From: a virus
Lineage: Duplodnaviria > Heunggongvirae > Uroviricota > Caudoviricetes
Length of the DNA: 64,000 nt
Reading direction: 5' to 3' (one strand)
IMG/VR virus record: IMGVR_UViG_2910596823_000004
Positions 3,108-49,172 of the stretch are shown piece by piece. The translations under genes were made by a program, and so were the position numbers. Numbering within the stretch: the first letter of the stretch is position 1; each line of letters starts with the position of its first letter. The notes under the pieces are model-generated. The model saw only the letters and a program-made list of their open reading frames with translations, was not told the DNA's origin and ran no database searches.

Positions 3108-3302
3108 AGATCCCTCTAAAACACTCAGAGCGCATCCTTGCGCTCCTAAACAACTTGTTTAATTCAGTGCCTAACCAATTTGTTTTCTGGGTGTTTAAAA
3201 CCGGGCTGGGAAGTATTCAGAACCTGCTTCCGTATATATTTAATAAGTCACTTAGTATTTATATATACGGAAGCAGGCTCTCAAACTGGCTCCCAGACCG
3301 AC

Positions 3303-8676: not shown

Positions 8677-9111
8677 TTGTTCGGTACAATGAAACACGCA
8701 TTACTTCCTCTGATTGCTACCTCCGCGTTACTTATCACTGCATGTCAATCTCGTCCTGTTTCTGTCTCTGATGCAAAGCCAGCACCGCAGGCCAGAATAT
8801 TCAAATACCAATCTCCAGCGGCATCTACGCTGGTGGTACTGAGGGATAAAAGCATGGTGGGCGCAGGTTGCGACGCATCGATCTTCATCAATGGCGAAAC
8901 CGTTGCCAAACTTGAGACAGGTGAAAAAGTCACTTTTCATCTGGATGCCGGAGAATGGATTGTTGGCGCTTCACTGGAAGGCGCCGGGCTGTGCGCACTG
9001 AACCCTGCTCGTCAGGAACGCGAGACGATCACCAAAGCTGGCGAGACGAAAGTCTTCCGGGTGTTCACCAGCAACGCAGGTGACATCGATATCCTACCAA
9101 CGACACTGTGA
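8677..9111 (+). CDS. Putative lipoprotein
   Basis: Signal peptide with lipobox LITAC. Start may be 8689 (MKHALL). Confidence 0.5.
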   Translation: MFGTMKHALLPLIATSALLITACQSRPVSVSDAKPAPQARIFKYQSPAASTLVVLRDKSMVGAGCDASIFINGETVAKLETGEKVTFHLDAGEWIVGASLEGAGLCALNPARQERETITKAGETKVFRVFTSNAGDIDILPTTL

Positions 9112-9116
9112 CGATA

Positions 9117-9643
9117 TGACGAATATTACTGACATCACCTACGGGATTCCTGCAGAAGTCTGGCCGCGAGATTACACCAACGTGGAGAAGGCGCTGATGT
9201 TCTGGCGTAAGTCTCTCATTCCTGTAAGGGTCACGATGGAAGATGGTCAGGTGTTCTGCATGTACGTTCAGGGTCTCATGTCGTCGCGCAACAAAGTCGA
9301 CCTTTGCCCTGCCCCGTTCGACAAAGAAAATCGTATAAGGCTCCCACTTGAGCGAATCAGCACGATTGAATCAGGTGTGACAGAAGGCATTGCGCACGAT
9401 TTCACGGGTCGGACAACGGTACACCCAGACTATGTGGAGAATCGGCCATCTCGCCGTGATTTCTTCAAAATTTGTCGCCAGGCTCATGAGATGCAGAAGT
9501 CTATAAGGGTCTACATGGCGGATGGCCGTGAAATTGAGGGTGTGTCTTCAGGCGTAGACGCTTGCCAGGTCACGCTCAACATGGGGGACGGTCGGAAGAC
9601 AGTCGTCATGTTCGATTGGGTCGAACGGATTTTACCGTTTTAA
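9117..9643 (+). CDS. Hypothetical protein
   Basis: ORF (MTNITDITYG...). The track start at 9080 overlaps the previous gene, so the ATG at 9117 is preferred. Confidence 0.45.
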
Positions 9644-9965: not shown

Positions 9966-10616
9966 ATGTCTAACGTTGCTATCTCTAAAAAATCCATCAT
10001 CGACGCTGCTGTAGTTATCGCTAATGAATTACAAGTTGCAGCCAATAATGCTACTCAGACTTATAACAATCATTATCAGAATGGTACGCACACAAAAGCA
10101 GATAAAGCTAACATGCTTGCAGCGACTACCAAACTTGCATACTTCACCAACAACGTTTTAAACGCTGTTAATGATGAGAAATTAGCTGGTGTCTTTTACT
10201 ACGCGATTAAAGCAAGCAAACAAGCGCCAGAAGTGTTTTTCCGCGAAGCTATGACCAATAGCTATTCACTCGAAAAATTGGTTTATCTGGTTAAATCTAT
10301 CAAGTCTGGTAAATGCGTTTATTCCGTCGCTGATATGTCCGGATCTCGTGTATTCGCATTAATCGAAATGATTAATGATGAACTGGAAACATTCACAAAT
10401 GGCGCTGTTTTCGATTTGATGAATGAAGCCAAAAAAGAAAATGAAATTAAATTGGACGCTGGATATACGCAAGCCAACCAGCTGATCAATCTTTGTGAAC
10501 GTCTCGGACTGGTCGAAAAGATCAAAGGAATGGGCGCAGCGAAAAACGGATCGCAGCAATATCGCTTTATCAAGAATGATTTTTATAACTATCTGGCTGA
10601 TGCTTTCAAAGCGTAA
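9966..10616 (+). CDS. Hypothetical protein (216 aa) in a very AT-rich island
   Basis: Clear ORF whose A/T-rich codon usage differs from the backbone. Flanked by terminators. Confidence 0.55.
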   Translation: MSNVAISKKSIIDAAVVIANELQVAANNATQTYNNHYQNGTHTKADKANMLAATTKLAYFTNNVLNAVNDEKLAGVFYYAIKASKQAPEVFFREAMTNSYSLEKLVYLVKSIKSGKCVYSVADMSGSRVFALIEMINDELETFTNGAVFDLMNEAKKENEIKLDAGYTQANQLINLCERLGLVEKIKGMGAAKNGSQQYRFIKNDFYNYLADAFKA

Positions 10617-10822: not shown

Positions 10823-10872
10823 TATTTGCGCTTGTCTGAAATGATCGGAAAACTGCAAAACAGCATTTAAGC

Positions 10873-10900
10873 AATAGCGCCCACTATGGGCGCTTTTTTC
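10873..10900 (+). terminator. Rho-independent terminator (copy 2; same stem as 10627)
   Basis: aatagcgcccactatgggcgct followed by TTTTTT. Confidence 0.6.
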
Positions 10901-10921
10901 GTTTCAAGATCCGCACATCAT

Positions 10922-10947
10922 AACGCGCCATTGTTGGCGCGTTTTTT
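10922..10947 (+). terminator. Terminator-like hairpin
   Basis: aacgcgcca-ttgtt-ggcgcgtt followed by TTTTTT. Confidence 0.45.
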
Positions 10948-10949
10948 AT

Positions 10950-11470
10950 TGTCTGAAGTCAGCCAAAACAGACCAAAAATAAGCGCCATAAACGCGCCAA
11001 TTTAACGCGTTTTTATGTGTGGTGGTACATACCCATTACCCACAATAAAAATCACGTTATAGCGCGTTTTACAGCGTTTTAGCGCGTGGATTATTTTGTC
11101 GTGTCGTGGGCGTGATCGTCTGGCGATAGCTGGCGACGTGATCCGCGCTATCCTTCGGGACGTGTCGGCAATGTTGGCGCTATCCGTGGGCGCTCGCGTA
11201 TCATTGGCACGTTGGCGCGACGTGTACGCGCTTGCAGTGGTTTACCCACGGATTCACATAATCACATAGCGAAAGCTATCTGGATGGCTCAGGGGCTGAA
11301 ACCCCACCAGCGCTACCCCAGCGCCGCTACGCAATTTCTGGCGCGATTCTGGGCTTCTCCCGCTCTGTTTTCTACATAAAGGCAAACCCAGCCGTTTCCC
11401 GAAAATTTCCTGACCGTTTCCCTTCGGTTCCCCGGACAGCTCTCTGGCCGTTTCTGAAATTCCCTGCGGC
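10950..11470. repeat. Repeat-dense non-coding region
   Basis: Contains GCGCG hairpins, three copies of GCGACGTG, two of GCGCTATCC, and three CCGTTTCCC copies (minus-sense GGGAAACGG). It holds no credible ORF. Confidence 0.5.
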
Positions 11471-11514
11471 AGCTGGTGGACGAAAAGAAAGGGGCGTTTC
11501 CGGCCCCTCCCCTC

Positions 11515-11997
11515 TTACTTGCCAGCCATGATGTGAATGCGGTTCTTTCCGTACACCTCTTTCACGTATTCCCCGCACGAGACACTCCACGAGTCGATTC
11601 CTGCTTCGTAGGTGACGTTTTTGCACTTGATGGCATTGTTGGCGATGCGCATCCCCTCCCCCACTGCTTCCTGTTCGCTGAAGTCGAACCCGGATTCTGT
11701 TTTAACCCATAGCGCGATCTGCGTGGCGAACTCGATGAGTTTTGACTGGCAGAAGCGACCGCTGCGTACCGGGAAGATGAATACGCCAAATCCCGAAGTG
11801 GAGACATACGCTTTCTCAAATACGCGCTTATGGCGACGGTTGCAGATTATGTCATTGGTGATCTGCTGTTTCTCTTTACCGGACAGTTCGATGGTTACAT
11901 TGTCACGCCAGGCGCCCAGCACGCTTTTCTCGTTATCAGAGAACGTCACAGAAATATGGCCATGCGCAGGGGTGTTAACAGTAGCGATAAAATTCAT
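11515..11997 (-). CDS. Hypothetical protein (160 aa)
   Basis: ORF directly preceded by a class-B motif at 12011-12045. Confidence 0.5.
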   Translation of the reverse strand: MNFIATVNTPAHGHISVTFSDNEKSVLGAWRDNVTIELSGKEKQQITNDIICNRRHKRVFEKAYVSTSGFGVFIFPVRSGRFCQSKLIEFATQIALWVKTESGFDFSEQEAVGEGMRIANNAIKCKNVTYEAGIDSWSVSCGEYVKEVYGKNRIHIMAGK

Positions 11998-12202
11998 GGT
12001 GATAATCCTTTAAACAACTTGTTTTCTTGTTTGTTTAATTATCGCTACGCGCATAAGGCGTCCAAGCGTTCTGTTTCGGCAACTGGTGGCCGGCAGGGAT
12101 TCGGAGGGTTGTTCGGTAGCCTGGCGGTAAGAGGTGGGTGTTTTTAGCCTGCGGGAAACAGGATGGTCATTTAAGGCCACCAGCATGGGTGGCCTCGTTT
12201 TC

Positions 12203-12499
12203 TTAGTGGAGCAGACCGACGTCGATGGTATCGCCGGAGCCATCCACGCGGATCATCAGCATGGCGAAAGCATTTAATGGGTATCCTGCGTGCCAGTCCG
12301 GGAAGCGGTCATCGCGCATGAAGTCGGCAATGTCATAAACGCTGTCCTCAAAGCGGAAGAAGCGGGCATCACATTGTTCGTCCTGTTCAATGTGATCCAT
12401 TTCCTGCTGCTCTTCCGGCGACAGGTCGAGCCAGGATTCCAGCCATACGTTTTCAGCTTTAGGGGAGATAGTGAAATCGGTCATGTGCATATCTTCCAT
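12203..12499 (-). CDS. Hypothetical acidic protein (98 aa)
   Basis: ORF preceded by a class-B motif at 12503-12537. Confidence 0.45.
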   Translation of the reverse strand: MEDMHMTDFTISPKAENVWLESWLDLSPEEQQEMDHIEQDEQCDARFFRFEDSVYDIADFMRDDRFPDWHAGYPLNAFAMLMIRVDGSGDTIDVGLLH

Positions 12500-12611
12500 G
12501 CGTAAACATCTTGTTTTCTAGTTGGTGTAATTATCGCAGTGTGGATAAGGCAAAAAACATTTTGTTATCGGGGATAAGAAAATGGCGCGGGGTACGCGCC
12601 ATTGGAAGGGA

Positions 12612-13007
12612 TTATTCAAACACGCTTTCGGGAATAAATTCGTCTACCATCGCGCTGGAAACGATGCGCAGACCGTATTGACCCATCCAGGTGCTGTTAG
12701 AGTTCAAATCAGAGGTAAACAGCGTGTCGACTCTGGTCATCAGCTTATCGAACATCGCCTTGTCCGCGGTGCGGAAGTACGCTTCCAGCTTTAGCAGCAG
12801 CGGGTCGGTTGCGTTGCTGATGTTCTGATAACCTACGGTGTATACCGCACTTTCACCTTCCCCCTCGCGCACTAAGGTGCTGGTGTGAACCTCCGTTCCG
12901 GTAGTGTTGTCACGCAGAACGACGGTCAGTTTGGCAACTTTCTCGCCGAAGGTGGTTTCGGACGCATAATGTAAATCCAGCACAAGATTTTCGCGTAAAA
13001 CAGTCAT
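12612..13007 (-). CDS. Hypothetical protein (131 aa)
   Basis: ORF with a palindromic element upstream (13046-13064). Confidence 0.45.
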   Translation of the reverse strand: MTVLRENLVLDLHYASETTFGEKVAKLTVVLRDNTTGTEVHTSTLVREGEGESAVYTVGYQNISNATDPLLLKLEAYFRTADKAMFDKLMTRVDTLFTSDLNSNSTWMGQYGLRIVSSAMVDEFIPESVFE

Positions 13008-13074
13008 CTTTATCTCCCTGTATTTGACTAACCTATATTATTGTCATAGGTATGTACTTACAATACAGGAGACT

Positions 13075-13101
13075 AAAAAAGCCCCGAAGGATGAACGGGG
13101 C
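13075..13101 (-). terminator. Rho-independent terminator (minus strand)
   Basis: Minus-sense hairpin agccccgttcatccttcggggct followed by TTTTTT. Confidence 0.55.
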
Positions 13102-13134
13102 TGTCGTAGGGTCGACTAATCGCTTTTGCACATG

Positions 13135-13446
13135 TCAGGCTGTCGCCAGGAGAGAGGCACGCTGGATTTCTTGCTGGGCTGCTTTGTTCGCCTCCAGTAG
13201 CGCCTGTTCCAGCTCTCCTTCCGGCCAGATAATCTGTTTTGCCATCCACCCTCTTCCACTCTGGCGACGCACACTCATGACGTAACGCGTGCGGGAACCA
13301 TTGTCGAATGAGACCAGCGTCTCTTTGAACAGGCGAATGGCAGTGCCGTTGGCGATGATATCGAGCAGGGTCAGCTGGCTCATTGCGGTTGGCTTTTCTT
13401 TACGTGGCTGGCCCGCACTCAGTTTGGTGATCATCGCGTTTTTCAT
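13135..13446 (-). CDS. Hypothetical protein (103 aa)
   Basis: ORF preceded by a class-B motif at 13458-13493. Confidence 0.45.
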   Translation of the reverse strand: MKNAMITKLSAGQPRKEKPTAMSQLTLLDIIANGTAIRLFKETLVSFDNGSRTRYVMSVRRQSGRGWMAKQIIWPEGELEQALLEANKAAQQEIQRASLLATA

Positions 13447-13586
13447 AATTCACTCCGTAAACAACTTGTTTTCTTGTTGGTGTAAATAATACCAGCGAGA
13501 AAACGGCTACAAAGCATAGCGTTACGGCGCTGCGCAGCCCCGGAGGTTGCAAACAGCAAAAAGCCACCGTGCTGGTGGCCTCACGC

Positions 13587-13803
13587 TTAATCTTCGTCGT
13601 CCGGGAACTCGATGTGTACCGCATCCACCAGCTCCCGCTGTTCATCTTCACTGAGCAGGTGCCAGATCTCCTTCCCTTTGGGTGATTCCCCTTCAGCTGG
13701 TACGAACGACCACAACTTGCGGTACAACTCCGGCCCCACTGCATCCAGGCATTCAGCCAGGGAATCCACGCTCCACACCTCAACCATCACAGGCATCTTA
13801 ATC
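13587..13803 (-). CDS. Hypothetical acidic protein (72 aa)
   Basis: ATG at 13801-13803 preceded by a GAGGG RBS (MIKMPVMVEVWSVDSL...). The longer track ORF, 13587..13997, overlaps the next gene. Confidence 0.4.
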
Positions 13804-13815
13804 ATCTCTTCACCC

Positions 13816-14031
13816 TCACTTCGTTTCTGACATCGTGCAGTTCCACGCGACGGACATTGGGTTGTCCTCGATATGGAAATCAAACGTCCCTTCTCTGTAT
13901 CCTTCAGAGATGAGCGTCGCCACGCGGCCAGCAACATCCAGGGAACGGATAACGTCATCGAGGGAGATCTCACACTCGGATGACGCTTCCTCGCCACAGA
14001 GGGTGATGCTGATATTCAGATGTTTGTACAT
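13816..14031 (-). CDS. Hypothetical protein (71 aa)
   Basis: ORF preceded by a class-B motif at 14047-14081. Confidence 0.4.
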   Translation of the reverse strand: MYKHLNISITLCGEEASSECEISLDDVIRSLDVAGRVATLISEGYREGTFDFHIEDNPMSVAWNCTMSETK

Positions 14032-14176
14032 GTGTTTCTCCTTTGTCTAAACACATTGTTTTCTTGTGTGTGTTATTATCGCAATAAGAAAACGGGGAAA
14101 AAGAATTCCTTAAAGGCTGATGTGCTTGTGCCGATTTATTGATATGTATGTATCTGGCTAACTCAGAGGGAATGTG

Positions 14177-14419
14177 ATGAGCACTAAAGACTACACAGAC
14201 GGGTACTTCAGCATCGACGCCGAGAGAGGCGAGTTGCTACATGGCGGCATCGCTGTCGGACGCGTCATTTTGGTTAACGGTCAGATTTACACAGAGCTGG
14301 ACGATACCAGTTCAAGCGCACCTGTCGTCTCCGGCCCCTTCGGGACAAGAGAAGAGGCGCTCGATGATTTGTGGGACAACAGAGACGATGCGAATCAGGG
14401 CAGTGAGATTTTCGAATAA
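14177..14419 (+). CDS. Hypothetical protein (80 aa)
   Basis: ORF transcribed divergently from the small-gene cluster. Confidence 0.4.
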   Translation: MSTKDYTDGYFSIDAERGELLHGGIAVGRVILVNGQIYTELDDTSSSAPVVSGPFGTREEALDDLWDNRDDANQGSEIFE

Positions 14420-14429
14420 ACGTCCTCGG

Positions 14430-15700
14430 CGATTTCACCACCAAAACCCGTAACCCTTTACACTAGATCTGGCTTCCCGACATGAGCGTGCGAAGCTGAT
14501 CTGGTCTCAACGCTCAACTGCGGGATTCACCAATTCCCGCACTCTTCAGGTGAATGAGGAAAAGGCATACTCCCGCAGCCGCCCCTCGCTCTGAACCGGG
14601 ATGTACCCGTTTCCCGACCGGCAGCCAGCCTTTTCTCGGTTCGTATAGCGGGATTCCCACCGTTTCCCTGAAAACCTCCAGCCTTTTCCCTACGGCGATG
14701 CCCCGTTCCTGAAAAGGGACATGGCCTTTTCCCTGGATGGCCCGAAGGTTGACCGAAGGGGTGGATAGGGACGTTACGGGGGATGAAAACTATGGCTTGA
14801 ATTTCTACGAAGAAAGTAGCGATACCCCTCTTCCCCTTCCCACTTATACCTCCAGTTAAATCTCTACGGATTTTCTCTCCTGTGGACGTGCAAACCTTCC
14901 CCCTGATAACACTCTATACGGCGAGTATTCCTTTGGGTGAAATGGGTGGTTTGTTCTCTCTACCGGCGTATGTGGTTTCGTTCTTTTTGAGGTGGTTCTT
15001 CTCTGTGTTTTCGTCTGGGGTGTTCTCGTCGTTTTGGGGAGTGTTCTTCTCCCTGTATGGAGTAATGGCAGGTGCGCTTTTCTCTTCGTTTACGTGAAAT
15101 TGTGGAAGTGTGGGTAATGGCAGTAGGGCGCTTTAGTTGTTCTCCGCATATGAAGTAATGGCGTTCCCTGCTATTCAGGGATTTGCGCTCTCTTTCGGGG
15201 TAATGGTGGGTAAAGGAGATTGCGACGGTTCCTGTTCTGGTCTGGGTTTGTCCGGGGTTTCGTTCTGGCTGTTCTTCTCCGTGTATTGGGTAATGGCATA
15301 TAGGGGTTTGCGTGCACGAGCTGCATTCACGGTTGCCTGGGGAGATTAGGTGGGTGCTCTGTAGCCTGGGGCAAAGAGGTGGGTCTTTTCGGTAGCCTGA
15401 CAGGAAGAGGTGGGTGTTTCCGGGATTGTGGGTAATGGCGTCTCTGGGTTTCCTGTGGGTGTGGTTAACTTGTTTTCTTGTGCCTGAAAACAACTTGTTT
15501 AGATGTCCAACATAACGCAACGGGAGCGCTTCTGAGCGTGTCTGCTTTTGGGTGGTATCACGAGTCGTTTTTGACGTTTTGGTCGCAGGGAGATGGATTC
15601 TGGTGCGCAGGAATTTGGGTATAAGAGATGGCGTGCGAAAACATCAATTTTTTAGACCAAATCAGGGGAAAGCGTTGACTTTTCGTTGACGTGTTATTTA
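14430..15700. repeat. Large non-coding repeat region, G+T-rich on the plus strand
   Basis: Six copies of GTAATGGC, roughly 44-50 bp apart or multiples of that. Further repeats of TAGCCTG..AAGAGGTGGGT and CCTTTTCCC/CCGTTTCCC. The only ORFs are compositional artefacts. Confidence 0.55.
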
Positions 15701-15853
15701 TTTGTTTTCTTATGGGGGTAATTGGCTTAAATGCCTTGTCACGCCTGGGTTGGGGTAGGTTGGAGAGGTGGGGAAAGTGGCGATCAACGGACTCTTATAG
15801 AAATCCTCAATTTGTGACCGCCAATGTCAACGGATTGATTAAGCTAGTTGTGC

Positions 15854-17044
15854 TCAAACATCTCCGTTCTTAATCCACTGCCTGATTTCCTCGTCTCGTG
15901 CGACTTCTTTCTCGTGTTGGGTAACATACAGGTCGGGTAAAAGAGGTGGAGCGAATTCTGGCTCTGTCGAACACCACTTTTCATATGCCTCACGCATAGA
16001 TTTTTCTACATCCCAATGTTCCAACTCTTGGTATTCAATCGGCCAGTTATCCTGCAATTTCTTCACAGCTTTAGCCACGTCGTACCGGAAGTAAGGGTTA
16101 AGACCAATGAAATTACCAGCCAGCATGTCATCAACCTCCTTCACTCTGGCAATCTTGGAAAACTTACCAATAGCAATGTTGAGATCCCAATCAGACACGA
16201 ATAACAGCAGTGCGGCAAATGCCAGAAACTTAGCCTCTCCATATGCTCTGTCGCTAACCGTTTTTGTCTTAAACTCAATGTAATTGCTCATCACAAACCC
16301 AGTAAGCTTGTAAGTCTTATTTATCTCATCTTCCAAAAGCGATGGGTCGAGAATTGCACGGCCACGATTATTATCTATGTGTTCTAAGATTGCCGAAATG
16401 TCTCTATGGGATACTGAAATTTTACGCAATTGCTGGAGAGTCTTGATGTGAACTCTTAGCACCTCTTTGTCAATTGCACGAGACCAAGAAAAACCAGGCA
16501 CAGTAGCCTGAATGGGTGAGAAAGGCATAATATCCGGGTTTGTCCATGCCAAATATGATTCACGTAACCCGCTAATATAGTCAAGCCAATCCAAATGACC
16601 CTTTTCCAGCCATATTTCAAATGTGGAGTCCTTACGCTTATTGAAGAACCATTCCCTCATCTGCCACATTTTTTCTTGCGTAAAAATCCCTTCCTGTATG
16701 CCGGCGCATACCAGTTTTCGTATTACCTGCGAATACTTTGTTCGATCTTTCGTGAATGTGACAAGGTGCTGCCTTACCTCAGATGTTAACCTATCTCCGT
16801 AGAAGTCACATGATGGATGGTGGCCTTGGCCAGCTTCACCAGTAAATCTGAAATGCGCCTTCTTGTGATAACCATCATTCCTAGAGGCTCTAACAAACGA
16901 GCCACCTCCGACTTTGCAAATTGGACAGATGATGTCTTCACGAGCGACAGCATGAACTGAGCTGTCATCTAAATTTTTAAGTGCCAAGTACTGCTCGGGG
17001 TCGACTTCCTTTTGTAACGATTTCGAAAAAGCTGTATCCGTCAT
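15854..17044 (-). CDS. Hypothetical protein (396 aa) with N-terminal Cys/His cluster (CPICK...HHPSC)
   Basis: Long ORF. GC looks lower than the backbone by eye. Similar ~30-bp motifs lie at 15693-15722 and 17128-17160. Confidence 0.55.
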   Translation of the reverse strand: MTDTAFSKSLQKEVDPEQYLALKNLDDSSVHAVAREDIICPICKVGGGSFVRASRNDGYHKKAHFRFTGEAGQGHHPSCDFYGDRLTSEVRQHLVTFTKDRTKYSQVIRKLVCAGIQEGIFTQEKMWQMREWFFNKRKDSTFEIWLEKGHLDWLDYISGLRESYLAWTNPDIMPFSPIQATVPGFSWSRAIDKEVLRVHIKTLQQLRKISVSHRDISAILEHIDNNRGRAILDPSLLEDEINKTYKLTGFVMSNYIEFKTKTVSDRAYGEAKFLAFAALLLFVSDWDLNIAIGKFSKIARVKEVDDMLAGNFIGLNPYFRYDVAKAVKKLQDNWPIEYQELEHWDVEKSMREAYEKWCSTEPEFAPPLLPDLYVTQHEKEVARDEEIRQWIKNGDV

Positions 17045-17185
17045 ATTGTCCTCTTAAATGTCTCGTTCCAGTAATCGGTTGACTAAGGGGGCCGATCAAC
17101 TACTTAGCCAAGATATTATAGCTCTTGTTATTTATTTGTTTTCTTATATGTGTAAACAAATAAACGCTACAATTTCGACAATAAC

Positions 17186-18151
17186 TCAATTCCTATTGTG
17201 TCCTACTGAACGAGAAAGCAGTATGCGTTTCCAGTGTGATTCTCGTCGGTTTATCTCGCAGGCGTCACTGTTAATGTCCATGATTTCCAGAATAGAGAAC
17301 GTGACATTCTTGAGCCTTTCCTCATCGCCGGTTCCAAACGCTTCAATCAGGCCAGCATTCCCGCCGTGACCCGTTTTAAAGTAGGTCTTCCATCTTCCCC
17401 ATATTCCGCCTTTGCCGTTTGCCTGGCCAACATACAACTTCTCGCCATCAACATCAGTCAGCAGGTAGATGCCTTTGACAATACTCAGTGCAGTTCTCCA
17501 CGACTTTAACTCCTGCCGAATGATGGTTCCGAGACTGGCTCTGTCCAGAACTACGTCTTTGTAGCCGGGAAACTCGCCAAATGATAGACAGGATGGCGCA
17601 ATCTCAACGACTCGCAGTTTTCCGGCAAGAGTTTCGCCGTTCAAAATAGATCTGCGAGGACGCTCCGCACTGACATACAAACGTCCACGATATTCATCCA
17701 GTTCAGGAACAGGTGTCAGTTGATAGAGATAGTAGTCTTCGTTCCGGCCAGGTACTGCATGTGATGCTGTCAGAGAACACCCAACGTTGAGATAGGTGCC
17801 AGCATAGAGAAATCGCGCCTTATCTTCAGTCTGAATAAGAGAGACAACGTAAGTACGATTGAAGCTTTTCAGCTTCTGCAGGCATTGCCAGTCGTCGAAC
17901 GTCTCTTTCACGAACTCCTGTATCGGGTTTTCTTTATATTCGTTGGTGCTGGCTAAATGAATTTTGCTGTTATTTGGGGTCAGCTGCGGGTATAGCGACT
18001 GAAGGTACTGGAATAGTTCCATGCAGAAAATGTCCCTTATGAGATCGGCTCTGATATCTGGTATCTCACATGGAGAGCCGATCTGTCCACGACAAAAAAA
18101 AAGGCTTACCAGTCCCAGCCAGGTAATCCGTCCACCAGCTCGGCGTCGCAA
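17186..18151 (-). CDS. Protein with C-terminal GIY-YIG nuclease domain
   Basis: C-terminus reads KGIYLLTDVDGEKLYVGQANGKGGIWGRWKTY...NRRESHWKRIL (GIY...YVG plus conserved R and E). The N-terminal ~200 aa are unassigned. The true start may be the ATG at 18022 (MELFQYL). Confidence 0.55.
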   Translation of the reverse strand: MRRRAGGRITWLGLVSLFFCRGQIGSPCEIPDIRADLIRDIFCMELFQYLQSLYPQLTPNNSKIHLASTNEYKENPIQEFVKETFDDWQCLQKLKSFNRTYVVSLIQTEDKARFLYAGTYLNVGCSLTASHAVPGRNEDYYLYQLTPVPELDEYRGRLYVSAERPRRSILNGETLAGKLRVVEIAPSCLSFGEFPGYKDVVLDRASLGTIIRQELKSWRTALSIVKGIYLLTDVDGEKLYVGQANGKGGIWGRWKTYFKTGHGGNAGLIEAFGTGDEERLKNVTFSILEIMDINSDACEINRRESHWKRILLSRSVGHNRN

Positions 18152-46879: not shown

Positions 46880-47000
46880 CATTATTCACAGGCCCGATCC
46901 AATAATTAGATCCCCAGAGAGATCCTACAGAAGATCAAAAGAGATCCCCGATCGTCTCCAGCCGTTGCGGTTACTGGCCTGAGAGGGGGTTACTATCCAC
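46880..47000. repeat. GATC-rich origin-like segment (copy 1). A ~120-bp direct repeat of it lies at 47262-47350.
   Basis: Six GATC sites within ~90 bp. The second copy conserves CACAGGCCCGATCCA.TAATT.AGATCCC. Confidence 0.5.
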
Positions 47001-47525
47001 TATGGGGAGGAAAGTAACCTCTGTAGAGAGCATAATAACCGCTATGAAGAGCAAAACAACCTCTCTGGAGAGTGGTCGGTATCCACTGTAGTGAGTAGGA
47101 GACATTGTCTTAACTGGATAACTCAGTGCCTGTTTTTCTACGTCAGGTGGCTGATATTCATAGAGATGTTGGAAGTTTTGCGTTCAGGCGTGTTTGTTTC
47201 GACCACACATTATCCCCAGAAGGGGAGTGATGGCTGGTTTTGCAATTACCTGATTTTTATACACAGGCCCGATCCAGTAATTCAGATCCCAAAGAGAACC
47301 AAAGAGGCCCACAAAGACCCAAAAAGATCCCCGCACCCCGCAAACCGTTGTGCCACATGGCCTTAGAGGTGATCGATATCCACTATAGAGAGAAGATCAG
47401 CCACTATGAAGAGTAAACCAACCACTGTAGAGAGTAGAAAAACCACTATAGGCGGTAGGATAACCGCTGCGATGAGTGCTACTATCCACTGTAATCAGTA
47501 AAGGCCACCAAAGCGGTCGAATAAA
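46990..47525. repeat. Iteron array upstream of repA (about 10 copies in two clusters)
   Basis: Repeats of ~19 bp, consensus (T/C)ATCCACTGTAGTGAGTA, with variants CCACTATGGGGAGG, CCACTGTAGAGAGTAG, CCACTATAGGCGGTAGG. Confidence 0.65.
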
Positions 47526-47539
47526 AAGAGACACTTGGA

Positions 47540-48604
47540 ATGAGCGAAAACGGCAATAAAAACATAGCGATCGTTGAAGCATTCTCAGAAACAGACAAAA
47601 AGACCGGTGAAGTTGTTACGTTAGTTCCTAACACCAACAACACAGTTCAGCCTGTTGCTCTGATGCGTCTTGGTCTCTTCGTTCCGACGCTGAAATCGAC
47701 CGCCAGGGGCAGAAAGGGGCAAATGGTCTCTATGGACGCCTCTGCTGAACTCAAACAGCTGTCTCTGGCCAAAGCCGAAGGGTACGAGGACATAAGGATC
47801 TCCGGCGTTCGTCTGGATATGGATAACGACTTCAAAACGTGGGTAGGCATCATCCATGCGTTCGCCAAGCACAAGGTTGTTGGCGATACTGTCACGTTAC
47901 CGTTCGTCGAGTTCGTCAGGCTCTGTGGCATACCAACGGCCAGATCGTCCGCGAAGTTACGCAAGCGCCTGGACAGTTCTCTAACTCGTATTGCCACAAA
48001 CACTATCTCATTCCGCAGTAAAGGCTCTGATGAGTATTACGTGACGCACCTTGTGCAGACAGCAAAGTACAGCACAAAGAACGACACGGTCTCGCTGCAG
48101 GCTGATCCTAAGATTTTCGAACTCTACCAGTTCGACAAAAAGGTTCTTCTGCAACTCCGGGCAATTAACGAACTCTCCAGAAAAGAATCCGCGCAGGCGC
48201 TCTACACCTTCATCGAAAGTTTGCCACCTGACCCGGCACCAATCTCGTTGGCTCGCTTACGCGCCAGACTTAACTTAACCAGCCGCACCATTACCCAGAA
48301 CGCGACAGTCAGGAAGGCGATGGAGCAACTTCGGGAGATCGGCTATCTCGATTACACCGAAGTGAAGCGCGGCAGCTCGGTCTACTTCATCATCCACTAT
48401 AGGCGGCCGAAGTTACGCCCGGCATTGCCACCAGCTAAAGCTGCGCCGGAAGAACCAGAAGAGCAGGAAGATAGCTTGCCTGGTGATGATCAGGAGGACA
48501 TCATCGATGTTGTTCCTGAAGAAAAAGACGGTGAGATGGTCATGTTGAGCAAGGAAGAACTGGCGATTCTCGAAGAGCTACGCAAGGCAAAAGCTCGCAA
48601 ATAG
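47540..48604 (+). CDS. repA: Plasmid replication initiator RepA (iteron-binding, P1/F-RepE type)
   Basis: 354 aa bracketed by iteron arrays on both sides. Resembles Rep_3-type initiators by eye. Acidic C-terminus. Confidence 0.65.
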
Positions 48605-49165
48605 CTCAACCACTGTAGAGAGTAGAAAGGCTCACTATCCACTGTAGTGAGCCTTTTGTTTATCTGAAATCCGCTATCCACTGTAGTGAGTAACAACAAC
48701 CTAAGAGTAACCACTGTAGGCAGTGGCGCTCAAATAACGAAATAAATGTTAGTGGTTACAAACCCAGATGAAACAAGGGCTGCGAGGTTAGTGGTCACTG
48801 GGTATCTTGTTAAATCCACTCTCTATAGTGGTTATCGTTGTTCCCGTCGTTATTGGCTATCCACTATGGAGAGCAGAATCGGTTGGCCGGATTTGCTAAC
48901 CACTGTAGTGAGTAGATATCCGCTGAAAACAGTGACGGTTTACTCTCCATAGTGGATACCCGCTGGAGAACGCATTCCATCACTCTCTATAGTGGTTGTT
49001 GGCTGCTGATGAACGCCTGTTTACTCCCTACAGTGGATAGCGACGTCGATAATCGCCACTTTACTCACTACAGTGGATACCGGATGTCACGGCAGGCGTT
49101 TTACTCAATACAGTGGTTATTGGTCGGATACGCACGCGGTGAGCTGGCTACTCACCGCAGTGGTT
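48605..49165. repeat. Iteron array downstream of repA (about 13 copies, both orientations; incA-like)
   Basis: CCACTGTAGAGAGTAG, ATCCACTGTAGTGAG (twice), CCACTGTAGGCAGTGG, reverse-orientation TCTCCATAGTGGATACC / CTCTATAGTGGTTG / TACAGTGGATA, and others. Confidence 0.65.
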
Positions 49166-49172
49166 AGTGTTA

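Follow-up and report, generated by a model that had tools for sequence, protein, structure and literature searches.

Among the closest described systems to the locus reported here are the operators of P1 C1 and the looping OL-OR operators of phage lambda. The locus is a conserved non-coding element of about 1.25 kb, dense in direct repeats, which the alignment of relatives delimited to positions 14,585-15,835 of a 64-kb sequence (the window, IMG/VR record IMGVR_UViG_2910596823_000004). The window represents an SSU5/pHCM2-like phage-plasmid, that is, both a plasmid and a virus, and in the region of the finding it shares 97% identity with a Salmonella Senftenberg plasmid and 94% with phage SSU5. 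Like the P1 and lambda systems, this phage-plasmid carries one operator word at many early promoters, with the palindrome AAACAAnTTGTTT found 16 times in 64 kb, and has extra operator clusters without promoters 0.2-1.4 kb from the controlled promoter. We propose, with a probability of roughly 45%, that the stretch is a DNA-level regulator-binding hub between a variable slot of defence genes and the early lytic operon. A docking array for early-gene regulators is the most likely role because the stretch is packed with the words that flank early promoters. Among the functions offered by an earlier interpretation made from the DNA letters alone (the sequence-only reading), an array of protein-binding sites fits best.

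The early promoters of the phage-plasmid, here called class B, share one layout. In 10 of 10 cases (sites at 3148, 12012, 12504, 13459, 14049, 18672, 22552, 23275, 37801 and 51130) the minus-sense sequence consists of CC(G/T)T(T/A)T(T/C), a gap of 7-9 nt, a GATAAT-like -10 element (often with TGn), ACACCAAC and AAGAAAACAAnTTGTTTA, followed after 3-20 nt by a Shine-Dalgarno sequence and ATG (SD-ATG). The promoter of the first early gene, which forms the left boundary (14048-14096, minus strand), reads CCGTTTTC-N7-TGcGATAAT-ACACACAC-AAGAAAACAAtgTGTTTA-SD-ATG, and its -10 with TGn was conserved in 36 of 37 sequences as well as in two distant relatives, Klebsiella pneumoniae plasmid pB-KP1118-1 and the Cronobacter sp. 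JZ38 plasmid. Several repeated words of the stretch are cis-elements of these promoters, namely CC(G/T)TTT(T)C(C), GTTTTCTT, AAACAAnTTGTTT, GTAGCCTG..GGTGGGT and GGGTAAT. Within the stretch these words are present as several direct repeats, with neither a conserved -10 nor a gene downstream of them. The iteron-like unit of the left part of the stretch (sub-region A), also present in the non-coding region on the other side of the early operon, is the upstream word of class-B promoters in reversed orientation. In the window, in pB-KP1118-1 and in the JZ38 plasmid, the class-B promoter of the 160-amino-acid (aa) early gene is preceded at a distance of 60-100 bp by the GTAGCCTG..GGTGGGT and GGGTAAT words; in the window a single GGTAGCCTG-N6-AAGAGGTGGGT unit lies at this distance upstream (12107-12144, plus strand).

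The operator word GTTTTCTT was found 13 times in the window against 3.3 expected, with the copies at 15472 and 15704 in promoter orientation. Of the palindrome AAACAAnTTGTTT there were 16 copies where 0.34 were expected, most of them shortly upstream of small genes on the minus strand (3148, 3173, 12012, 12504, 13459, 14049, 15488, 18672, 18723, 19103, 19419, 22552, 23275, 24247, 37801 and 51130). At 15472, 15488 and 15704 the operator words face in the minus-firing orientation, as they do at 12021, 13468, 14058 and 22561. The operator sites of the stretch have no GATAAT-like -10 (GTTATG and GCCAAT in the window), no CCKTWTY word at 7-9 nt and no SD-ATG. Of the class-B promoter that the sequence-only reading had placed at 15464-15502, the operator words (GTTTTCTT at 15472 and the palindrome at 15488) and their orientation hold, and the conserved -10, the upstream word and the SD-ATG do not. 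A scan for conserved promoters detected none inside the stretch, and no sigma-70 promoter or intrinsic terminator is conserved there. The word TATAAGA was tried as a phage-specific promoter word and dropped, as it was not enriched. Copies of CCGTTTCC at 11.39-11.47 kb lie past the intrinsic terminator of the early operon; they are thus unlikely to act as minus-sense RNA, which argues for a role at the DNA level.

The stretch was present in 859 PLSDB plasmids of Klebsiella, Escherichia, Enterobacter, Salmonella, Citrobacter and Cronobacter, nearly always without annotation. Among 5,426 complete E. coli genomes, 246 (4.5%) carry it on plasmids and none on a chromosome. Its nucleotide identity between clades was 69-84% as against 66-84% for neighbouring genes, and 41% of the alignment columns were identical across five deep lineages, the identical islands coinciding with the repeated words. 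In the two distant relatives the 160-aa neighbour shows about 30% identity; the corresponding position is taken by an unannotated gap of 1.5 kb that keeps nearly all elements in order. The shared order runs from the class-B promoter through CCGTT(T)CCC units, TTGAAT..TACG and a C-rich block to a G+T-rich, A-poor block with (G/A)(T/A)(A/G)ATGGC repeats, (T/A)GCCTG..GGTG repeats, the double operator, GTTGAC/GTTGAT, TTGTTTTCTTATG and finally TCAAC..CTTATAGAAA within an inverted repeat. The exception is pB-KP1118-1, in which the double operator precedes some of the ATGGC and TGCCTG repeats. Global identity between these relatives and the window was about 50%, compared with 41.5% for a shuffled control, and the local matches were colinear. 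The stretch is under purifying selection and very old, and the repeats picked out by the sequence-only reading are conserved in relatives, as the comparative alignment bears out.

The base composition of the stretch is uneven. The plus strand is 68% G+T at 14,900-15,840 (73% in the E. coli clade) and C-rich at 14,590-14,860 (30% C), so that the G+T richness reported for the whole plus strand applies to the former part and not to the latter. In the alignment the skew was strongest in the invariant columns (74% G+T) and fell to 59% in the most variable ones. The limits had also been set differently: a non-coding repeat locus at 14430-15700 was confirmed as such, with the correction that 14,420-14,585 varies among lineages and lies outside the conserved element, and that the right limit is 15,835 instead of 15,700.

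Sub-region A (14590-14745, plus strand) contains six direct CC(G/T)TTTCC units that start at 14607, 14629, 14660, 14682, 14704 and 14725, with spacings of 22, 31, 22, 22 and 21 bp. It can be described as a 44-nt double unit repeated three times, and its units were retained in pB-KP1118-1 and the JZ38 plasmid. Outside the stretch, three further CCGTTTC(C/T) units were located at 11388-11470 (plus strand; starts 11392, 11414 and 11448), directly past the intrinsic terminator of the early operon, and their core was identical in pB-KP1118-1, the JZ38 plasmid and Yersinia pestis pMT1. The recurrence of the 14590-14740 repeats at 11380-11470, seen from the sequence alone, was confirmed by these six units and three further copies. 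The window contains 21 copies of CCKTTTYC, where 10.5 were expected; clusters lie at 11392-11421 and 14607-14732. Sub-region A is followed by a conserved block (14775-14850) of GTTACGGGGGAT, TTGAAT..TACG, CCCCTC and CTTATAC, and then by an indel hot spot at 14,853-14,880.

Sub-region B1 (14900-15330, plus strand, 68% G+T) carries GTAATGGC at 15062, 15114, 15155 and 15290 and a variant at 15200, the units being part of a 29-nt unit, TGTTCTTCTCCnTGTATgGaGTAATGGCA, of which there are three copies. With the copy at 15432 there are five exact copies and one single-mismatch variant, GTAATGGT at 15200; the six copies listed before at 15062-15432 are thus five exact ones and a near-copy, with three of the coordinates shifted by 1. 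In the whole window GTAATGGC has six exact copies against 1.5 expected, five of the six in the stretch (15,062-15,439). Downstream of B1, three tandem units of about 31 nt, (C)GGTAGCCTG-N6-AAGAGGTGGGTcTTTT, occupy 15329-15420 (plus strand). The 24-nt word GTAGCCTG-N6-AGAGGTGGGT, for which 0.01 occurrences were expected, was found at 15332 (with 3 mismatches), at 15361, at 15392 and a fourth time at 12116, in agreement with the TAGCCTG-type repeats described earlier. Relatives carry 1 to 4 of the tandem units, differing by entire units. The last GTAATGGC unit, ATTGTGGGTAATGG (15425-15440, plus strand), has an exact 14-nt inverted copy at 11033-11046 (GGGTAATGG).

The double operator, TTGTTTTCTTGTG-cctg-AAAACAACTTGTTTA, lies at 15467-15503 without a conserved -10 and is followed by the conserved AACGCAACGGGAGCG..TGAGCGTGT (15514-15541). 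Sub-region C (15600-15835) was free of indels in 37 of 37 non-redundant sequences. It comprises GGGTATAAGA (15617-15626), AAAAC(A/G)TCAA and AGACCAAATC (15640-15663), GCGTTGAC with TCGTTGA(C/T) (15672-15691), a class-B-like operator without -10, TGTTATTTATTTGTTTTCTTATG (15692-15714), and an inverted repeat, GGCGATCA and TGACCGCC around TCTTATAG (15779-15823). Homology ends with TGTCAACGG (15826-15834), where the variable cargo starts. Indels of at least 5 nt clustered at 9-12, 20-23 and 30-33 nt, near multiples of the helical turn, a pattern that is only suggestive.

Neither a protein nor a folded RNA was supported as the product of the stretch. Substitutions showed no 3-nt periodicity in any of 18 windows of 180 nt (p 0.32-0.97; 15 relatives from about eight lineages), and no open reading frame (ORF) was conserved in position or frame among the 15 relatives. 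A protein-coding gene was therefore rejected, given the flat periodicity and the ORFs that differ between lineages, and the earlier judgement that the locus holds no credible ORF was upheld. A GTG ORF of 36-43 codons at 14992-15117 (plus strand) encodes a very hydrophobic peptide and has the same start in most lineages; it is probably an artefact, because G+T-rich DNA gives hydrophobic residues in all frames and codon periodicity was lacking.

The sequence-only reading had also suggested a structured non-coding RNA (ncRNA). Rfam 15 gave no match at the gathering score in the whole window and none within 14,000-16,000 at E values up to 5, so that no known RNA family was recognised, and ARAGORN found no tRNA or tmRNA. 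In sliding 120-nt windows RNAalifold returned structure conservation indices (SCI) mostly of 0.05-0.4 on both strands, with no conserved RNA structure, and a large structured RNA was rejected on these low values. The sole hairpin kept in all lineages (15073-15112, plus strand) is weak evidence because it is held by G-U pairs in G/U-rich sequence and represents one independent contrast. In the minus sense, RNA of 14,900-15,800 would be almost free of structure, with a minimum free energy (MFE) of -12.5 per 100 nt vs -24.9 +/- 5.7 for the window background. A sponge of the CsrA/CsrB type was considered for minus-sense sub-region A and rejected: the 4-8 GGA motifs per lineage had unpaired probabilities of 0.0-0.99 with no consistent exposure, and the sequence-wide means were 0.35-0.50. 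Mimicry of, or antisense pairing with, 16S/23S rRNA, prompted by GGGTAATGGC and GAGGTGGG, was likewise discarded, as shared k-mers equalled the shuffled expectation and no chromosomal match occurred in 5,426 E. coli genomes.

Plasmid pMT1 of Y. pestis (55 records) has lost the whole stretch. In NZ_CP016275.1 (37,699-52,178), three early genes, the stretch and the cargo up to sbcCD are missing, beside a copy of IS1541; the 160-aa and 93-aa early genes (95% identity) and the left non-coding region are kept. Since pMT1 is maintained in spite of this loss, neither replication nor partition of the plasmid needs the stretch. The deletion contradicts a plasmid origin and the centromere-like site proposed before. 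RepA, also proposed as a ligand, is encoded at 47,540-48,604, 32 kb from the stretch, and its RepFIB/P1-type 21-bp iterons (TATCCACTGTAGTGAGT) are unrelated to the words of the stretch; on this ground RepA binding was not supported, and RepA iterons or incA-like control were rejected. The plasmid-mode origin itself (46880-49170) is of P1/RepFIB type, with DnaA-box-like TTATTCACA/TTATACACA and GATC-rich repeats, and repA is flanked on either side by copies of TA(T/A)CCACTGTAG(T/A)GAGT, about 20 in all, spaced 21 bp or 40 bp apart.

A published RNA-seq re-analysis covers Cyrano, a phage-plasmid of E. coli LF82, in which the homologous stretch lies at 94,275-95,485 in reverse orientation. Two ORFs annotated there, CYRAN_103 and CYRAN_104, are on the equivalent of the minus strand of the window. 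Both were at background in LF82 lysogens in all five conditions (0 and about 14 fragments per kilobase per million (fpkm) in LB; PMC9928086 S1 table), and CYRAN_102, the accessory gene or moron just upstream, reached 57 fpkm (PMC9928086 S1 table). The minus strand of the stretch is thus silent in lysogens, and the minus-strand transcript of about 1 kb expected by the sequence-only reading is absent there. Elsewhere in Cyrano (OV696614 40,268-40,822), CYRAN_43, a 'hypothetical protein' gene between the glutaredoxin and integrase genes, was reported at 723-fold over the prophage background in lysogens (about 7,000 fpkm), and could be a lysogeny RNA or small protein with high expression.

If the stretch is a regulator-binding hub, the array would be occupied by the repressor together with one or more other DNA-binding factors encoded by the phage or the host. 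Cooperative looping could join the array to the operators at 14,048 and to its counterpart at 11.39-11.47 kb, or the array could instead titrate the regulators; either looping or titration would make repression of the early operon tighter and sharper. Lytic replication may also be activated at this site, and the G+T-rich strand asymmetry would then be mostly the sum of G/T-rich sites in one direction. This proposal draws on the conservation of the stretch, the words shared with promoters, the copies distal to the terminator, the lack of conserved RNA structure, the unit-wise change in copy number, the indel pattern with an indel-free sub-region C, the peak of the G+T skew in invariant columns, the silence of the minus strand in lysogens and the tolerated deletion in pMT1.

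Several observations weigh against a hub. No binding protein was identified: the neighbouring small proteins have no recognisable DNA-binding domain, and a model of the 216-aa core protein (9,966-10,616; predicted local distance difference test score (pLDDT) 86) gave only helical-bundle and weak winged-helix matches, which are non-specific. The GTAATGGC word is absent from other class-B promoters, and the likeness of CCGTTTCC to the promoter word CCGTTTTC amounts to a T-rich word of 6-7 nt. A 10-bp periodicity of conservation, expected for binding to one face of the helix, stood out against a naive shuffle (z = 6.7); it was dropped because it vanished with block shuffles and look-elsewhere correction (p = 0.39). 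Finally, variable columns are still 59% G+T and G>T changes exceed G>A, which points to a composition constraint on one strand that DNA sites alone do not explain. Readings based on a single strand therefore stay alive.

Among these, a long minus-strand ncRNA or leader of the early operon, made early in lytic growth, is a tentative alternative. It would be a C/A-rich, unstructured RNA of 1.1-1.7 kb with repeated GCCAUUACCC and ACCCACCUCUU..CAGGCUAC, transcribed once the repressor is inactivated from a promoter within one of the operator clusters (near 15,500 or near 15,700-15,800). An RNA-binding factor of the host or the phage could use it as a sponge or platform, or it could be a regulated leader of the early operon. 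The operator words are oriented as in real minus-strand promoters, the E. coli and Klebsiella clades have a TATAAA that overlaps the operator, and pB-KP1118-1 has a near-complete class-B copy in sub-region C; the -10, however, is not conserved in the lineage of the window, and no terminator is conserved. The strand composition persists even in relatives with about 50% identity, the minus-sense RNA has the low folding energy given above, and the repeats are direct and variable in number. Silence in lysogens fits control by a repressor. The same words nevertheless occur past the terminator at 11.39 kb, a sponge of the CsrA type is unsupported as GGA is not preferentially unpaired, and pairing with or mimicry of rRNA was rejected. 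A narrower form, in which a minus-sense unstructured C/A-rich RNA of about 1.2 kb appears after induction and soaks up a host RNA-binding factor, with Rho as the best fit in composition, is very unlikely; if true, it would mean genome-wide antitermination or host shut-off through RNA and not through a protein such as P4 Psu. Rho could also act on the stretch as a terminator, and an insulator that blocks read-through from the accessory slot into the early lytic operon during lysogeny is an unlikely explanation. The minus sense of 14,900-15,790 contains the C>G, unstructured and untranslated tract of at least 80 nt by which Rho terminators are recognised, and when all 78-nt windows are ranked by C minus G it falls at the 90th-99.9th percentile. 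The cargo genes lie on the strand of the early operon and stop 5-20 nt away from the conserved edge, and expression in Cyrano falls from 57 fpkm in CYRAN_102 to 0 in the next ORF, inside the stretch. That fall takes place within about 110 nt, so that 1.2 kb would not be needed for insulation, and loading of Rho requires composition, not words conserved at 70-90%, ordered repeats and an indel-free block of 240 bp. In Klebsiella lineages, moreover, the cargo is on the other strand.

An origin of lytic replication is a doubtful candidate, in which the phased CC(G/T)TTTCC units would be initiator iterons activated by repressor-controlled transcription and the G richness of the plus strand could help an R-loop or a displaced strand to form. 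The six units are direct repeats, mostly 21-22 bp apart, and so have the form of an iteron origin (at least three direct repeats in helical-phase spacing). Operators flank the origin array in lambda ori and P1 oriL, and those of the stretch flank its array in a similar way. A second related site 3 kb away resembles the arrangement of ori/crr in P4, and plasmid-mode replication does not need the stretch. On the other hand, no initiator gene lies in or beside the stretch, no Rep-like domain was detected in its neighbours and no conserved DnaA box was seen in reading the alignment. The least stable 40-mer of the stretch (15693, -45.3 kcal/mol) is a modest AT-rich patch, at the 95th-99th percentile of the window and 1 kb from the CC(G/T)TTTCC units; the cumulative GC skew shows no turn; and the plus-strand promoter that an R-loop would require (TGnTATTAT, 14071) is not conserved in the JZ38 plasmid. 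The same promoter is the single candidate for the most improbable of the alternatives, a plus-sense G/U-rich transcript with tandem elements like the ops sequence that recruits RfaH, giving antitermination towards the cargo slot. Here TTCGGTAGCCTG occurs at 12113 and 15389 and agrees with ops (GGCGGTAGCGTG) in positions 3-9, 11 and 12. Bases 3-8 of ops are contacted by RfaH and the TG at 11-12 forms the pause (PMC5995543). CGGTAGNNTG occurs 5 times against 1.18 expected, always on the plus strand, but 3 of the 5 matches are inside genes. Positions 1, 2 and 10 of ops differ, and every ops substitution except G2C lowers activity (PMC5995543). No plus-strand promoter is conserved, and plus-sense RNA would be antisense to the neighbouring genes in most lineages. 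The resemblance of CGGTAGCCTG, the core of the 31-nt units, to ops may be taken as a lead only.

The regulator-binding hub would stand between two different neighbourhoods. On its left, five small early genes occupy the minus strand (11,515-14,031), the first at 13816-14031 under the class-B promoter described above. An 81-aa ORF (phrog_23830; 14174-14419, plus strand) is an insertion in the window's own lineage only and lies outside the conserved element. The neighbouring small proteins had no relatives in Pfam, NCBIfam, PADLOC or PDB. Beyond the early operon is the left non-coding region (10830-11514), which is conserved in pMT1, pB-KP1118-1 and the JZ38 plasmid and contains three terminator-like hairpins, repeats of the GTTGGCGC type, a Chi site at 11472 and the three CCGTTTC(C/T) units. 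The stretch and the 10.9-11.5 kb region do flank the cluster of early small genes, as had been stated. Chi (GCTGGTGG) was found 22 times in the window against 2.1 expected and 0 times inside the stretch, and was dismissed as content of the stretch, being enriched in the window yet missing from it.

On the right, a 396-aa ORFan (15,854-17,044) is followed by a GIY-YIG protein with a match (E = 7e-58) to UzuA, the Uzume defence protein. This slot (15854-18151 in the window, minus strand) is a hot spot for cargo whose contents differ between relatives, which have other ORFans or hypothetical proteins, or DUF262 with a type I restriction-modification (R-M) system (L004-L016 in our set). Because the slot is variable, a functional link between the stretch and the 396-aa gene was rejected. 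Large Klebsiella plasmids contain only the equivalent of 15,077-15,841, together with a DUF262/R-M island. Further to the left of the early operon, a core gene at 9080-9643 (plus strand) belongs to the FljA family (Pfam Flag1_repress PF03614, E = 1e-96). FljA represses the translation of fliC mRNA in Salmonella. The gene is retained in pMT1 and in relatives from non-motile Klebsiella, and since it is kept in these, the native target of the protein may be the phage-plasmid itself. It was noted beside this gene that the class-B palindrome is located in the 5' leader, 3-20 nt ahead of each SD.

SSU5/pHCM2-like phage-plasmids are common in clinical Enterobacteriaceae and bear resistance and defence genes, and their lysis-lysogeny control is undescribed in the literature searched, in which neither this locus nor SSU5-type operators were described. 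The stretch is a natural starting point for dissecting the lysis-lysogeny switch. It raises the questions of which proteins read its words, whether the array sets the induction threshold and whether it shields the lytic genes from a changing defence slot, and it marks a conserved anchor for cargo exchange.

Unlike the operators of P1 C1 and of lambda OL-OR, those described here are embedded in 1.25 kb of at least three other ordered word families; an operator-binding protein of SSU5-like elements was not reported in the literature searched, and looping is our inference. P1 incA, F incC and titration sites of the E. coli datA type, iteron arrays that serve control and not initiation, resemble the stretch in having direct repeats about two turns apart without promoter or gene, at a distance from the site where the protein acts, and in varying in copy number; the stretch differs in that its words are unrelated to the RepA iterons, its array is not beside repA and it is dispensable for plasmid maintenance, as pMT1 indicates. 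Like ori/crr of P4, it forms one of two non-coding repeat clusters that lie kilobases apart and have short direct words in common, but here no primase-helicase or initiator is linked to the words. Rho utilization (rut) sites share its C-rich, G-poor, unstructured and untranslated minus-sense tract between two transcription units, whereas the stretch is about 10 times the required length and its sequence, beyond composition, is conserved. With the JUMPStart/ops leaders bound by RfaH it has in common a repeated CGGTAG..TG core on a G-rich strand, yet the flanking ops bases differ and that strand has no demonstrated promoter or downstream operon. Among auxiliary-operator or iteron-like control arrays the stretch is unusual: it is large, interleaves several word families, has asymmetric strands and is deeply conserved.

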